NCBI GenBank assembly: GCA_018901755.1
Contig: JAHIDZ010000015.1
Location: 65,079-129,078, forward strand
DNA length: 64,000 nucleotides
Source: Nanobdellota archaeon
GTDB taxonomy: Archaea > Aenigmatarchaeota > Aenigmatarchaeia > Aenigmatarchaeales > Aenigmatarchaeaceae
Direction of reading: 5' to 3'
Shown: in pieces, positions 2,949-45,303 of the stretch
Layout: each line of letters starts with the position of its first letter
Numbering within the stretch: the stretch's first letter is position 1
Notes under the pieces: generated by a model
What the model saw: the letters and a program-made list of their open reading frames with translations, nothing else
Told to the model about the DNA's origin: nothing
Databases searched by the model: none
Translations under genes and position numbers: made by a program

Positions 2949-3215
2949 ATGACACTACTTAGAAAAGAAGGTAGCCATTTGTATAATTCTATAGGTCATA
3001 TTTTAATTGGTATTGGACTCACAGAAGATGTTGCATATGGAACACTTAATCGATCAGTTGAAAAGCTTGGTTTATCGCCTGGTTGCGTTCAAGAAGATAA
3101 TATAAACGGAATTTGTGACAATTTAGAGGTAGCTTTGTGTATTAGTCTTGATACGAAGAGAATGTCTGATTTGAGAAACAATATATACAAGCTTAAAGGC
3201 TCTGCTTCGAAATAG
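2949..3215 (+). CDS. hypothetical protein
   Basis: ORF only. No recognisable motifs. Confidence 0.3.
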   Translation: MTLLRKEGSHLYNSIGHILIGIGLTEDVAYGTLNRSVEKLGLSPGCVQEDNINGICDNLEVALCISLDTKRMSDLRNNIYKLKGSASK

Positions 3216-3275
3216 GGTCCATAAACCTTTAAATAGTTTATTAAATAACATAAGAATACAAAAATGGAACTAATG

Positions 3276-3293
3276 AAATGAGGTGATGATATG
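3276..3293 (+). promoter_or_regulatory. possible K-turn-like autoregulatory element in the L7Ae 5' leader overlapping the SD and start codon
   Basis: GAGGUGAUGAUAUGGAUGAA contains a C-box-like GUGAUGA and a second GAUGA. Archaeal L7Ae is known to bind a K-turn in its own leader. No paired D-box was found. Confidence 0.2.
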
Positions 3294-3605
3294 GATGAAT
3301 CAAAAATTCTTCATATAGTAGAAATTGCTAAAAATACAGGAAAAATAAGAATCGGCACAAATGAAACAACTAAAGCAGTAGAAAGAGGAATAGCAAAGTT
3401 AGTTGTAGTAGCTGATGATGTTACTCCTAGAGAAGTTATAATGCATCTAGAGCCGTTGTGTAATGAGAAGAAAATACCGTTAGCGCATGTAAATGGTAAG
3501 ATGGATTTAGGAAGAGCATGCGGAGTTACAGTACCTGCAGCAAGCATAGCAATTATTGAAGAAGGCGACGCAAAGAAAGATATTGCTGATATGAAAAAAG
3601 AGTGA
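3291..3605 (+). CDS. rpl7ae: 50S ribosomal protein L7Ae (K-turn binding)
   Basis: [19 protein letters not shown]...HLP.LC.EK.IP match the L7Ae/L30e family. Position is upstream of S28e, as in the conserved L7Ae-S28e-L24e cluster. A GGTGA Shine-Dalgarno lies 6 nt upstream. Confidence 0.9.
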
Positions 3606-3610
3606 TATGA

Positions 3611-3820
3611 ATGGCACAAGAACCAGTTCCAGCTGAAGTAGTTCAGTGTTTAGGAAGAACAGGAATAAAGGGAGTTAATCAAGTTAGATGTAAAGTTCTT
3701 GAAGGAAAGGATACTGGAAAGATACTTGTTAGAAACGTTTTAGGTCCTATTAGAAAAGGAGACATACTGGTACTTAGAGAAACTGAAATGGAACACGCTG
3801 GTACAATGGAGTTGAGATAA
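3611..3820 (+). CDS. rps28e: 30S ribosomal protein S28e
   Basis: [46 protein letters not shown] matches eS28. Confidence 0.9.
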
Positions 3821-4450
3821 ATGAAATGTGAGATAGATGTTAGGAGAGAAGACGATATCGGTTATACACTAGGTGTTATTGCTGGTGATGGGTTTATTGG
3901 AAAGAATACAGAAACGACAAGAATGATTATGCTATCTGTAAAAGATAAAGAATTTTGTGATAATTTTTCAAATAGTTTGTTTAATATATGCGGCCGAAAA
4001 TATAAGGTTAGTAGGGTTAATAATTATAGATATAGACAAGGTTATTGCTGGGTAACAAGATGTTGTATTCGACAAGTAGTTAACTTTTTTGAAAATTATG
4101 ATATTTATCAATTATCAGAAAATACAGATAAGATCAAGCTAGGTTTCTTAAGAGGTATGTTTGATGCAGAAGGTTGTAGCTTTTGTAAGCTTTATCCTAA
4201 AAGAGGAGGTTATTCAAGAACGGTTGCTGTTTTTAATAAAAATAAAAAATTACTTAATCTGTGTCAAGAATTATTGAATTCTTTCGAAATAAAAACAAGA
4301 AAATTTTCTAAAGATAAGGATGGTGTATATGCACTTCACCTGAGTCTTTCAAAAGAAAATCTAACGAAATTTAGGGATTTGATAAATTTTTCAATCCCGC
4401 GCAAAATTTCAAACTTGGAAACATGCTTAGAGAGTTATACGGGTGGTTAA
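3821..4450 (+). CDS. free-standing LAGLIDADG homing endonuclease-like protein
   Basis: Two LAGLIDADG motifs (LGVIAGDGFIG and LRGMFDAEGCS). The ATG abuts the S28e stop and the 3' end overlaps the L24e start. Confidence 0.8.
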   Translation: MKCEIDVRREDDIGYTLGVIAGDGFIGKNTETTRMIMLSVKDKEFCDNFSNSLFNICGRKYKVSRVNNYRYRQGYCWVTRCCIRQVVNFFENYDIYQLSENTDKIKLGFLRGMFDAEGCSFCKLYPKRGGYSRTVAVFNKNKKLLNLCQELLNSFEIKTRKFSKDKDGVYALHLSLSKENLTKFRDLINFSIPRKISNLETCLESYTGG

Positions 4451-4619
4451 TATCAAATGTAGCTTTTGCACTAAAGAATTAGAAAAAGGAACAGGTAAAA
4501 TGTACATAAAAACAGATTCAAAAATATTTTATTTTTGTTCGAGAAGATGCGAGAAAAACATGTTTAAATTAGGACGTGATCCTCTTAGAGTAAAATGGAT
4601 CACTAAAAAGAAAAAATAG
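4443..4619 (+). CDS. rpl24e: 50S ribosomal protein L24e (start assigned to GTG)
   Basis: My own translation from the GTG at 4443 is VVNIKCSFCTKELEKGTGKMYIKTDSKIFYFCSRRCEKNMFKLGRDPLRVKWITKKKK. It shows the L24e zinc-ribbon signature C-x2-C...C-x3-C plus KMYV-like and VKW motifs. The ORF is missing from the track because it is under 60 aa and lacks an ATG start. Confidence 0.72.
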   Translation: MVNIKCSFCTKELEKGTGKMYIKTDSKIFYFCSRRCEKNMFKLGRDPLRVKWITKKKK

Positions 4620-4689
4620 TTTCACTCATCTGGTTGAATTTACTTGGGGTATATATTCTTTTTTTGTTTAGAATATTTAACAGGTTAAA

Positions 4690-5472
4690 ATGTTAAATCA
4701 AATCCTGTTATCTGATCTAAAGATGTTTGGTCTAAGCGAATACGAAGCGCGTGCGTATCTTGTTCTATCTATGTATGGTCCATCGTCAGCATCATTTATT
4801 TCTGAGCATAGTAAGATACCTTCTTCAAAAATATATGATATTTTGAATTCTTTGCGTTTCAAAGGACTATTAGATGCGTGTAATACAAAACCTAAAAGAT
4901 TCAAATTAATTGATCCGAAGTATGCGTTAACTAGTATTCTTGCTTCAAAAGAACTTATGATAGAAGAAATGAGAATTAAAACTAAAAATCTTTTAGAAAA
5001 ATTAAATCCGCCGCAGAATAGCATAAAATCAGAAATATGGCATTCTAGAGGAAAGAGACCGTTTTATGATAAAGCATGTGAGATATTGAATAAAACTAAA
5101 GAGCATGCTATAGCGACAACTAAAGACTTTTCACGTTATCCATTTCTAGATTATGAGTTTCTTGATGCAACTAAGAGAGGTGTTAAGATAAGGATACTTT
5201 GTACTTCGAATCTTACAGATGATGCTATCTCAAGAGCAACGTGGTATGTTAAAAATGGAGCTGATATTAGAGTTCTTCCAATGAAAACAAGCCCGATACT
5301 TGGTATAATAGATGACAGTGAAGTTGTCTTTAAGATTAATTCGCAAGTAGATTGTGATTTCATGTGGTCTAACAATGAGAATCTTATTAGTATAATGAAA
5401 AATTATTTTGAGAATTTGTGGTTAAAAGCGAGTCCTATCCAGCAATGCTTATCGGTTTTGCAAGAGAATTAG
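4690..5472 (+). CDS. TrmB-family transcriptional regulator
   Basis: N-terminal wHTH (LSEYEARAYLVLSMYGPSSASFISEHSKIPSSKIYDILNSL) and a TrmB-like C-terminal domain. Confidence 0.7.
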   Translation: MLNQILLSDLKMFGLSEYEARAYLVLSMYGPSSASFISEHSKIPSSKIYDILNSLRFKGLLDACNTKPKRFKLIDPKYALTSILASKELMIEEMRIKTKNLLEKLNPPQNSIKSEIWHSRGKRPFYDKACEILNKTKEHAIATTKDFSRYPFLDYEFLDATKRGVKIRILCTSNLTDDAISRATWYVKNGADIRVLPMKTSPILGIIDDSEVVFKINSQVDCDFMWSNNENLISIMKNYFENLWLKASPIQQCLSVLQEN

Positions 5473-28063: not shown

Positions 28064-28166
28064 GGGTCCATAAGTTAAATTTTAATTTAACTGGAATGCT
28101 CAGTTTGGCTAGAGCACCTGCCTCTTAAGCAGGGGGTCGCGGGTTCAAATCCCGTTGGACCCACCA
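28064..28166 (+). tRNA. tRNA-Lys (anticodon CUU) with a 25-nt intron between positions 9 and 10; CCA encoded
   Basis: Acceptor GGGUCCA/UGGACCC, D-stem GCUC/GAGC, anticodon arm CCUGC-CUCUUAA-GCAGG and T-arm GCGGG-UUCAAAU-CCCGU. The intron at 28073..28097 (AGUUAAAUUUUAAUUUAACUGGAAU) forms an 8-bp hairpin. Confidence 0.78.
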
Positions 28167-28219
28167 ATTATTTTTGAATTATTAATATGTTTAAATATTT
28201 GACTAGTAGATAATTATTT

Positions 28220-43740: not shown

Positions 43741-43860
43741 TGGTGCGGGAGGCAGGATTTGAACCTGCGAATGAACTAATCAACTGGGTCCTAAGCTTCG
43801 CTCAAGAATAAACGTATTTAATCTTGTCCAGCGCCTTAGACCTAGCTTGGCAACTCCCGC
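43741..43860 (-). tRNA. tRNA-Leu (anticodon UAG) with a 31-nt intron at the anticodon-stem position 30/31 (or 31/32); CCA encoded
   Basis: Minus-strand read GCGGGAG-UU-GCC...GGC-G-CUGG[ACAAGAUUAAAUACGUUUAUUCUUGAGCGAA]G-CUUAGGA-CCCAG-UUGAUUAGUUCAUUC(variable arm)-GCAGG-UUCAAAU-CCUGC-CUCCCGC-A-CCA. Removing the intron gives a perfect CUGGG/CCCAG anticodon stem with G37. The D-arm and long variable arm match archaeal tRNA-Leu. Confidence 0.7.
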
Positions 43861-44480: not shown

Positions 44481-45224
44481 ATGAATAACATTGATAAAAA
44501 TAAGGTATTACGTCTGTATAAAGATGGGTATACATTAGCACAGATTTCTATAAACACTGGACTAAGTAAAACTACAATTTATTATCATACGCGGAAGCAA
44601 TTTGGGAGAAAATATAAGCTCATAACGATTTCAGATAACAGAGAGAAAATTGGTGAATTCATTGGTGTTTTTACAGGAGACGGGTATTTCATTAAGGATA
44701 AGATAGGACATTACAAAACAATGATAACTGTTTCGATTAAAGCATCTGAATACATAAAGCACTTAGATACGATTTTTACAGAACTGTTTTCTAAATCCCC
44801 ACTTATTATCAAAAGACTTAAATATAATACAGTCGAACTTCGATACGATTCTAAAGAAATATACGAATTGATAAAAAACTATTTGTTTTGGGATGGAAAG
44901 AAACATAACTCAGTTAGACTGCTGGTAATTGAGCACGATAAGGAATTTCTTACAGGATTCTTAAGAGGTTGCCTAGATACAGATGGTCATGTTCATAAGA
45001 ATTATAAAAGAATATGCTTTTCTACCACATCTCTATTTTTGGCGAACCAGCTTTCTTCTATTTTAACTAATCTTGGTTTTGAGAACAAAATTCTAATAGC
45101 AAGAGATAAGAGATTGAATAGAAAATTGTTATATAATGTAAGATTGTTGGGAGAAGAAGCTATTAGATTGATTAAAACAATTAAACCAGGAAATCCTTCA
45201 AAGAGAAGAGATTGGTGCGAGTGA
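44481..45224 (+). CDS. HTH fused to a LAGLIDADG homing endonuclease-like domain
   Basis: N-terminal HTH (YKDGYTLAQISINTGLSKTTIYYHTRKQ). LAGLIDADG motifs IGVFTGDGYF and LRGCLDTDGHV. The last 9 nt overlap the acceptor stem of tRNA-Gly on the opposite strand. Confidence 0.8.
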   Translation: MNNIDKNKVLRLYKDGYTLAQISINTGLSKTTIYYHTRKQFGRKYKLITISDNREKIGEFIGVFTGDGYFIKDKIGHYKTMITVSIKASEYIKHLDTIFTELFSKSPLIIKRLKYNTVELRYDSKEIYELIKNYLFWDGKKHNSVRLLVIEHDKEFLTGFLRGCLDTDGHVHKNYKRICFSTTSLFLANQLSSILTNLGFENKILIARDKRLNRKLLYNVRLLGEEAIRLIKTIKPGNPSKRRDWCE

Positions 45225-45303
45225 GGGGATTTGAACCCCTGTTGTAAACTTTTTGCGAAATTCTTGGCAAGCTTACGTACTGGCCAGACTATACGACACT
45301 CGC
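45213..45303 (-). tRNA. tRNA with a 14-nt intron at the canonical 37/38 position, most likely tRNA-Gly (anticodon GCC); CCA encoded
   Basis: Minus-strand read GCGAGUG-UC-GUAU-AGUCUGGCCA-GUAC-G-UAAGC-UUGCCA[AGAAUUUCGCAAAA]A-GUUUA-CAAC-AGGGG-UUCAAAU-CCCCU-CACUCGC-A-CCA. UUGC of the loop can pair with GCAA in the intron, giving a BHB-like helix flanked by 3-nt bulges. Confidence 0.62.

Follow-up and report, generated by a model that had tools for sequence, protein, structure and literature searches.

How can an archaeal ribosomal protein gene accommodate a homing endonuclease gene in its first codons? This question is raised by a 64,000-nt stretch of contig JAHIDZ010000015.1 from a Nanobdellota archaeon, in which an open reading frame (ORF) for a protein of 209 amino acids (aa) lies between S28e and L24e in the L7Ae-S28e-L24e operon. 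The whole stretch is referred to as “the window”, its full length supplies the coordinates used here, and all genes of the locus are on the + strand. A metagenome-assembled genome (MAG) labelled Nanoarchaeota encodes a hypothetical protein with 100% identity to the product of this ORF. The nearest relatives in which the site is uninterrupted (“empty”) are MAGs labelled Aenigmatarchaeota, and the host sequence is a DPANN archaeal chromosome. To our knowledge, homing endonuclease genes (HEGs) are usually said to survive in essential genes only within self-splicing introns or inteins. The answer that we consider probable for this locus is that a free-standing HEG of the I-DmoI type homed into the first codons of L24e and captured the start of its host gene, with L24e being restarted at the 3′ end of the element.

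The endonuclease gene (3821-4450, with its TAA stop at 4448-4450) matches the Pfam families LAGLIDADG_3 (3.5e-14) and LAGLIDADG_1 (1.2e-4). The TAA of S28e directly abuts its ATG, and this ATG is L24e’s own start codon: the sequence ATG AAA TGT at 3821-3829, i.e., the native start of L24e with its codons 2 and 3, now makes up codons 1 to 3 of the endonuclease. A second copy, ATC AAA TGT (4452-4460), gives L24e back its Lys and first zinc-ligand Cys, and the zinc ribbon resumes from it as ATC AAA TGT AGC TTT TGC (4452-4469). Taken with the preceding codon, the two copies are ATGAAATGT and ATCAAATGT, identical at 8 of 9 positions, with ATC in the 3′ copy at the position where the empty site has ATG. 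The L24e gene as it can be read today encodes 58 aa from a GTG (4443-4619; Pfam Ribosomal_L24e, 1e-15), and its conserved body, K-C-S-F-C, begins at 4455. From the GTG at 4443 to the end of the endonuclease stop at 4450, the two genes overlap by 8 nt. With 631 nt separating the AAATGT copies (631 mod 3 = 1), the endonuclease and L24e frames differ. No second copy of L24e or of the endonuclease was found in the 64-kb window.

To see what the uninterrupted site looks like, the S28e-L24e junction was compared at 28 loci obtained by an S28e scan with one genome per species (loci from this and the other searches are labelled L002, L003, L004, L005, L006, L007, L008, L017, L018, L019, L035 and L037). 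In almost all of the 28 loci, L24e follows S28e by 7 to 51 nt. The pattern in the relatives is an S28e stop, 0 to 5 nt, ATG AAA TGY, and then S-F-C. Thus, the empty junction reads ...AGA TAA AT ATG AAA TGT TCG TTC TGT in L006, TAA TTTAA ATG AAA TGC TCA TTT TGT in L007, and TAA A ATG AAA TGC ACA TTC TGC (M-K-C-T-F-C) in L008. The more distant archaea L018 and L019 likewise start with M-K-C-S/T-F-C, their ATG-started MKCSFC sites being like those of L006 and L007. By this comparison, the normal N-terminus of L24e is MKCSFC from an ATG; neither a GTG-started VVNIKC terminus nor an unrelated gene at this position was seen as the norm in the closest relatives. There are also archaeal L24e proteins with extra residues before the first Cys (MVVKNKC..., MVEGQEC..., MSRRLRKC...). 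Relative to the empty sites of L006 and L007, the window carries 631 additional nt following codon 3 of L24e (3830-4460), although, owing to the AAATGT repeat, the register of the insert could equally be any from 3824-4454 through 3830-4460. The empty site reconstructed for the window is GAGTTGAGATAAATGAAATGTAGCTTTTGCACT.

The interrupted arrangement is not confined to the window. Protein searches yielded five endonuclease homologues with 57-64% identity to that of the window, and a metagenome scan with the endonuclease profile returned only one further locus, L035, whose DNA was added in this way. The occupied set therefore comprises six DPANN lineages: the window, L002, L003, L004, L005 and L035. 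All five homologues are located between S28e and L24e, and as the same arrangement is present in six independent assemblies, an assembly artefact or chance is excluded. At the 5′ junctions, the S28e stop abuts or overlaps the start (TAAATG, TAATG, TGAATG, TAGTG, TAGACATG), and AAR TGY follows. All six ORFs begin at the L24e start position; in the alignment, M1, K2 and C3 are invariant in 6 of 6 endonucleases and residues 4 to 12 are variable. The 3′ junction of the five other lineages is composed of (A/G)GGTGA or GAGTGA, then T(A/T)TTT, then ATA AAA TGY TCN TTY TGY, and that of the window is GGGTGG TTAAT ATC AAA TGT AGC TTT TGC. With the repeat copies 638 nt apart in the other five lineages versus 631 nt in the window, the frame offset is neither zero nor conserved.

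These comparisons confirm what the original prediction had described: a double-LAGLIDADG ORF of 209 aa between S28e and L24e, which appears in the ORF list, is recognized by Pfam and recurs in five further assemblies; an opening ATG AAA TGT like that of a normal L24e; AAATGT at both junctions, with the insertion placed after codon 3 by the uninterrupted sites of L006 and L007; and capture of the L24e ATG by the element. Its interpretation is supported as largely right. One element of it, that the target was duplicated or regenerated, holds as far as the repeat is concerned, and the origin of the two copies deserves separate consideration. The 5′ ATG AAA TGY always encodes M-K-C, varies synonymously, and opens an otherwise variable, unstructured tail of the endonuclease. 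If the insertion point follows TGY, the 5′ copy would be host sequence at each new invasion, and this would explain its conservation without any role in the enzyme. The 3′ copy would belong to the element and be retained because L24e needs the K-C. A host-derived 5′ copy is thus the more parsimonious, though not proven, assignment.

The 3′ end of the element also resembles a natural S28e-L24e junction. The window sequence TTAATATCAAATGT is identical to TAAATATGAAATGT of the empty L006 site at 12 of 14 positions, and AGGTGATATTTATAAAATGC of L002 to AGGTAATTTAAATGAAATGC of L007 at 15 of 20. The end of the element may derive from a junction of this kind, or the two may have converged on the same signals. 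In the start-position codon of the 3′ copy, the third base is C or A, never G. From this pattern we propose that the element-borne copy avoids ATG and keeps ATH since a perfect copy would recreate too much of the enzyme’s own target.

Judged by its sequence and predicted structure, the enzyme is a single-chain, double-LAGLIDADG endonuclease of the I-DmoI type and a new, distant member of this family. Motif 1 (IGYTLGVIAGDGFIG, 3857-3901) ends in ...VIAGDG, of which G22, D23 and G24 are invariant in the alignment, and the predicted catalytic Asp23 is encoded by GAT at 3887-3889. Motif 2 (LGFLRGMFDAEG, 4139-4174) ends in ...MFDAEG, with D115, A116, E117 and G118 invariant in the clade found at the L24e site and the predicted catalytic Glu117 encoded by GAA at 4169-4171. 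Both motifs therefore end with an acidic residue plus Gly (D23-G24 and E117-G118), and these pairs are invariant in all six proteins. In the AlphaFold model (predicted local distance difference test, pLDDT, 86.5; predicted template modelling score, pTM, 0.87), the motif helices span residues 10-22 and 103-115. The model consists of two helix-plus-four-strand units, the first helix starting at residue 10, and together with the Foldseek matches it has the pseudo-dimeric alpha-beta-beta-alpha-beta-beta-alpha fold. I-DmoI is the best Foldseek match (E 4e-11, TM 0.65-0.76) and accounts for all of the top 34 matches, followed by PI-PfuI, E-DreI, I-SceI and WhiA; a family profile searched against the PDB gives I-DmoI and PI-PfuI at E of about 1e-3. 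The pairwise ratio of nonsynonymous to synonymous substitution rates (dN/dS) among the six endonuclease genes is 0.07-0.19, with dS saturated. Therefore, the protein sequence, beyond the mere open frame, has long been maintained. The enzyme is a candidate for a new LAGLIDADG specificity with a defined natural target.

No match to the endonuclease was found in a phage protein collection. Its distant relatives (25-35% identity) are free-standing and either intergenic or in virus-like contigs, where the neighbours are methyltransferases, Endonuclease VII, HNH, RecU or DnaB. One intergenic relative with 30% identity (L037, 2501-3160) lies between a 126-aa ORF and CDC48, just upstream of the latter, and is more AT-rich than its flanks. 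Its last codons, AAG GAG AAT TGA, furnish an AAGGAG Shine-Dalgarno (SD) sequence for CDC48, and no start codon has been captured there.

How, then, is L24e translated when its ATG heads another gene? Upstream of the AAA codon, the L24e frame of the window has just eight open codons. Inspection of these codons bore out the original observation that they hold no ATG, the GTG at 4443-4445 being the sole canonical start. This GTG stands 4 codons before AAA TGT, inside the end of the endonuclease ORF, and the NCBI annotation of L24e (MBU3896883.1) begins with it. In 5 of 6 lineages, a GTG is kept at this same distance of 4 codons from AAA TGY, and in the window, L002 and L035 there is no other canonical start. 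In four lineages the GTG overlaps the endonuclease stop as GTGA, and in the window it lies 5 nt before the TAA; its position is constant relative to L24e although the type and position of the stop vary. The same bases also make up an SD-like motif, G(G/A)GTG(A/G), 5 nt before ATC/ATA. In the window this motif is GGGTGGT (4441-4447), 4-5 nt upstream of the ATC at 4452, at the 3′ end of the element. The distance from the motif to ATH matches the GAGTGA+5+ATG spacing found at S28e and S2 within the window.

The ratio of nonsynonymous to synonymous differences per site (pN/pS) in L24e is 0.2-0.5 among the occupied loci, the same as between empty loci, and for L003 versus L004, pS is 0.54 and pN is 0.01. 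This purifying selection, together with the presence of only one L24e copy in the window, argues that L24e is translated from the 3′ end of the element. We favour termination-reinitiation, in which ribosomes finishing the endonuclease ORF would restart at the GTG or at the nearest usable codon. The earlier claim that L24e must start at the GTG or be translated by re-initiation is supported by the conservation of the GTG in 5 of 6 lineages, and weakened by its position within the SD-like motif and by L003, in which L24e has no canonical start.

Two other routes to L24e were considered and set aside. A −1 frameshift fusion of the endonuclease to L24e is not favoured, as inspection of the sequences alone revealed no slippery heptamer upstream of the stop that is common to the lineages. 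An internal archaeal promoter was suggested by the TATA-like TTTATAAA at the 3′ junction of five lineages; the window does not have it, and since it lies 0-3 nt from the K-C codons, it could not yield a complete L24e.

Gene callers truncate or mis-start L24e wherever the element is present. Public gene calls in L002 (4645-4791) and L003 (737-856) start L24e at an internal ATG (48 and 39 aa, respectively), and as a result the first CxxC of L24e is lost from these calls. A separate peculiarity of L24e is seen in three occupied lineages, L003 (692-853), L004 (802-942) and L005 (767-907), in which the third zinc-ligand Cys is replaced by Asp (YFDSSKC or FFDKSKC versus YFCSxKC) and the remaining protein is conserved.

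Taken together, the data can be accommodated by the following scheme. The enzyme would cut the uninterrupted S28e/L24e junction of element-free genomes; this is predicted from its fold and intact catalytic residues, from the purifying selection on it and from its patchy occurrence. The element would then be copied in when the break is repaired on an occupied template. As the incoming ORF uses the host start codon abutting the S28e stop, the endonuclease would be translated along with the L7Ae-S28e-L24e operon through the stop/start coupling that normally serves L24e. A replacement module at the 3′ end of the element, with an SD-like GGTG, a GTG that overlaps the stop of the endonuclease and the sequence ATC/ATA AAA TGY, gives back the Lys and the first zinc-ligand Cys severed by the insertion. 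By re-initiation or SD-directed initiation at this module, L24e would be made as M-V-N-I-K-C-S-F-C..., or as (M)-K-C... from the ATC.

A further reading, about which we are rather doubtful, is that the element is built against easy loss: it would take away the sole ATG and the S28e coupling, make L24e dependent on read-through to the element-borne restart, and use a non-ATG start deliberately to prevent self-cutting. If true, this would be a previously undescribed strategy, “start-codon capture plus restart cassette”, by which a HEG could reside in a protein-coding gene without the help of an intron or intein. The main scheme by itself, with the host start codon borrowed and a substitute handed back, would represent a third, translation-based way to render an insertion harmless, in this case in genome-reduced archaea. 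The locus also offers a small natural system in which re-initiation and starts other than ATG could be studied in DPANN archaea.

Several observations weigh against a homing element that captured the L24e start and restarts the gene: the GTG sits within the SD-like motif, leaving the L24e start ambiguous; L24e of L003 has no ATG, GTG or TTG in its 58 open upstream codons, only a GGAGG 9 nt before ATA; the explanation of ATH as self-immunity draws on two independent observations at most; only six occupied lineages, in two deep clades, are known, which leaves room for vertical descent with precise losses; and the flanking 8/9 repeat could possibly permit such a loss, regenerating the exact empty site. 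The first two of these points concern the start codon of L24e and the last two concern the mobility of the element.

With respect to the start codon, it is possible, though we think it less likely than a start at the GTG, that the same element has L24e initiating at ATC (ATA elsewhere) under the direction of the SD-like GGTGA, the GTG being just a part of the SD. In 5 of 6 lineages, exactly 5 nt separate G(G/A)GTG(A/G) from ATH, which equals the spacing in the GAGTGA+5+ATG of S28e and S2 in the window, and the 3′ end of the element is similar to a natural S28e-stop/spacer/L24e-start junction (12/14 and 15/20, as above). L003 offers further support. In this locus (680-692), GAG replaces GTG, which also removes the TGA stop so that the endonuclease is three codons longer and ends at a TAA; without the GTG, L003 still has its GGAGG 9 nt upstream of ATA, and nearly all differences between the L24e genes of L003 and L004 are synonymous (pS 0.54, pN 0.01). 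Since this locus is represented by one contig, the GAG might be a sequencing error; otherwise, it amounts to a natural experiment in non-canonical initiation. Against a start at ATH, initiation from ATA and ATC is very weak in the systems studied, while L24e is a ribosomal protein needed in stoichiometric amounts. Moreover, the GTGA overlap of start and stop is a classic coupling arrangement, and the one variable site of the spacer (ATA/ATT) causes no amino acid change when read in the L24e frame, in agreement with a GTG start. As the GTG lies inside the SD-like motif, the two signals are inseparable, and re-initiation at the GTG is the start that we prefer.

With respect to mobility, the pairwise identities of GluRS, a TrmB-like protein, S28e and L24e were used as markers of host relatedness. 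GluRS of the window is 78% identical to that of L006 and 72% to that of L007, both empty, versus 46% to that of the occupied L002. The corresponding values are 62%, 46% and 46% for the TrmB-like protein, 87%, 72% and 78% for S28e, and 73%, 63% and 63% for L24e. The endonuclease, absent from L006 and L007, is 62% identical between the window and L002, and is therefore more conserved between these two lineages than GluRS or TrmB (46% each). Occupied and empty states are thus interleaved among the hosts, the empty L006 being nearer the window than the occupied L002. Interleaved occupancy together with the conservation of the element is, from these identities, suggestive rather than conclusive of horizontal spread by homing and of continuing mobility. 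There was no sign of co-conversion of the flanks in the comparison of S28e identities, as the window S28e is nearer that of the empty L006 (87%) than that of the occupied L002 (78%).

It is unlikely, in our estimation, that the endonuclease was acquired once and is no longer mobile, with the empty relatives representing precise losses via the flanking repeat and the ORF being kept intact through its translational coupling to L24e or through a gained host function. That five of the six elements form one clade with 65-85% identity, and that dS is saturated, indicates that the insertion is old; the 8/9 direct repeat would offer a route to exact excision, and coupling would select against nonsense mutations. 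However, coupling accounts for an open frame, not for a dN/dS of about 0.1, and it does not explain the invariant catalytic acids and DNA-binding scaffold. Nor does vertical inheritance fit well with an endonuclease identity of 62% between the window and L002 versus 46% for GluRS and TrmB, or with the two empty lineages that are nearer the window than L002 is.

Could the insert instead be removed from the RNA, as a bulge-helix-bulge (BHB) intron, a group I intron or by some other route, so that the mature message would again encode MKCSFC? We regard this as very improbable. Archaeal LAGLIDADG genes are classically intron-borne, with I-DmoI being the closest structure here, and L003 has no canonical L24e start; for these reasons, the BHB intron was the form of RNA removal taken most seriously. 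The repeat would allow an in-register junction, and the host has active BHB splicing, including non-canonical tRNA introns. A scanner purpose-written for the helix / 4-bp helix / 3-nt bulge geometry was applied with strict rules, and also with relaxed rules (3 of 4 central pairs, 2-bp flanks) anchored on the junction pairs that restore the register. As a positive control, it ranked the introns of tRNA-Trp, tRNA-Lys and tRNA-Leu in the window first, and after in-silico removal of two predicted introns ARAGORN recognized tRNA-Lys(CTT) and tRNA-Leu(TAG), indicating that this organism splices BHB introns. At the L24e site, no BHB was found, under the relaxed rules as well, at any of the seven register-restoring (MKCSFC) splice pairs in the six lineages. 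No BHB position was both conserved across the lineages and compatible with an open L24e frame. Single-sequence duplex predictions across the junctions differ between lineages, and the RNAalifold consensus of the joined junctions has no bridging helix. A weak candidate with all-AU/GU pairing in L003, L004 and L005 was rejected: the joined product would be MKCxQ/KCSFC in two of them, a stop codon arises in L005, and the candidate is absent from the window, L002 and L035. There was no Rfam match up to E=1 in the region 3000-5200, and at the Rfam gathering threshold the whole window yielded tRNAs only, with no group I or II intron. As the ORF fills the entire insert, there is no room for a ribozyme core. 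Lastly, the conserved GTG/ATH AAA TGY module would be pointless in a spliced insert. From the sequences compared, we conclude that the L24e insert is not a BHB intron.

The tRNA genes that served as controls differ in the placement of their introns. In tRNA-Lys(CTT) (28064-28170, +), an intron of 25 nt (28073-28097) interrupts the gene following approximately nucleotide nine, and a perfect BHB of 7+4+7 bp flanks it. In its unspliced form the gene is missed by ARAGORN and is matched by Rfam only over model positions 10-63. The 117-nt tRNA-Leu(TAG) gene (43744-43860, −) is found unspliced only by Rfam. Its BHB-predicted intron of 31 nt (43797-43827) is at a non-canonical position, and a second, weaker BHB candidate is present. 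The tRNA-Trp(CCA) gene (45213-45303, −) contains a 14-nt BHB intron at the canonical 37/38 position.

Finally, an intein or degenerate intein in L24e, to which the M-K-C start (inteins start with Cys), the JGI name of one homologue (“intein-encoded DNA endonuclease-like protein”) and the presence of PI-PfuI among the fold matches might point, is refuted by frame, size and fold, just as the original prediction had argued from the sequence: the two frames differ by an offset (631 versus 638 nt) that is neither a multiple of 3 nor conserved, the ORF is closed by a stop codon of its own, the first LAGLIDADG helix begins as early as residue 10 of 209 aa and leaves no Hint splicing blocks, the 3′ junction is devoid of His-Asn plus a nucleophile, and Pfam reports no intein domain.

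Is a free-standing HEG that repairs its host gene known from elsewhere? The closest known arrangement appears to be that of the fungal mitochondrial mORFs with a replacement gene end, encountered first in Allomyces macrogynus atp6 and then in Glomus atp6, atp9, cox2 and nad3, where the endonuclease ORF is inserted in phase, together with foreign codons that duplicate the displaced C-terminal ones (PMC3630166). As at L24e, a free-standing LAGLIDADG or GIY-YIG ORF lies within a conserved protein-coding gene, the host protein remains complete owing to a second copy of the displaced gene end, and the elements are patchy among close relatives, with horizontal transfer inferred. The duplication of displaced codons is shared (3821-3829 and 4452-4460, 8/9 identical); the location at a 3′ gene end of a mitochondrial genome is not. 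In the fungal elements the foreign C-terminal piece precedes the ORF and the native C-terminus is a dead remnant, whereas the L24e element follows codon 3, has its ORF ahead of the replacement piece (an SD-like motif, a start and I-K-C), and uses the displaced native ATG AAA TGY as the endonuclease start. In addition, the host here is an archaeal chromosome and the target a ribosomal protein operon. By analogy, the L24e element looks like the N-terminal, archaeal mirror image of the mORFs.

Other comparisons are less close. I-DmoI, from the 23S rRNA intron of Desulfurococcus mobilis, shares with the L24e-site enzyme its size (~200 aa), two motifs in one chain, an Asp/Glu pair and an archaeal host. 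However, the identity between them is only 18-21%, and I-DmoI is encoded in an rRNA BHB intron and does not begin on a host gene’s start codon, whereas no intron was found at the L24e site and the target is a protein-coding gene. In phages, mobE of Aeromonas phage Aeh1 interrupts nrdA, whose product is then made as two large polypeptides that come together again by way of new tails (PMC3045599), and the Seg and Mob genes of T4 are free-standing homing endonucleases (PMC2988022). These are likewise genes without an intron or intein, in or next to essential conserved genes, and the host is rescued via sequences created by the insertion with no RNA or protein splicing. They differ in encoding HNH or GIY-YIG enzymes in phage genomes, and in the case of mobE two polypeptides reassemble, whereas the L24e element replaces three severed codons in cis. 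Host start signals are also used by intron ORFs fused in frame to upstream exons (PMC8393795). Such ORFs borrow the translation start signals of the host gene as the L24e element does, but they are part of self-splicing introns and leave the mRNA with them, and no intron is detectable at L24e. Full-text searches returned no paper linking LAGLIDADG and L24e, and no description of such an arrangement was found in the literature on DPANN homing endonucleases or on free-standing archaeal LAGLIDADG genes. As far as we have found, the arrangement is new for Archaea and for the 5′ end of a gene.

Not every gap between S28e and L24e signifies this element. In another Aenigmatarchaeota MAG (L017, region 2196-2900), the two genes are separated by 711 nt, and L24e is ATG-started and begins with MKCSFC. 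This gap was considered as a further occupied site and rejected, as it holds an unrelated Cys-rich ORF of 150 aa (2387-2839) and not an endonuclease. The S28e-L24e junction is thus not always contiguous.

The remainder of the operon in the window is as follows. L7Ae (3291-3605; Pfam Ribosomal_L7Ae, 1.2e-27) is the first gene, with GAGGTGAT located 3 nt upstream of its ATG, and S28e follows (3611-3820; Pfam Ribosomal_S28e, 4e-23; TAA at 3818-3820). A TTTAAATA box (3228-3235) precedes the L7Ae start by ~55 nt, and ~40 nt past the L24e stop there is a run rich in T, TTCTTTTTTTGTTT (4657-4670). Read from the bases only, the two resemble an archaeal promoter and terminator, respectively, that would delimit one L7Ae-S28e-endonuclease-L24e transcription unit.

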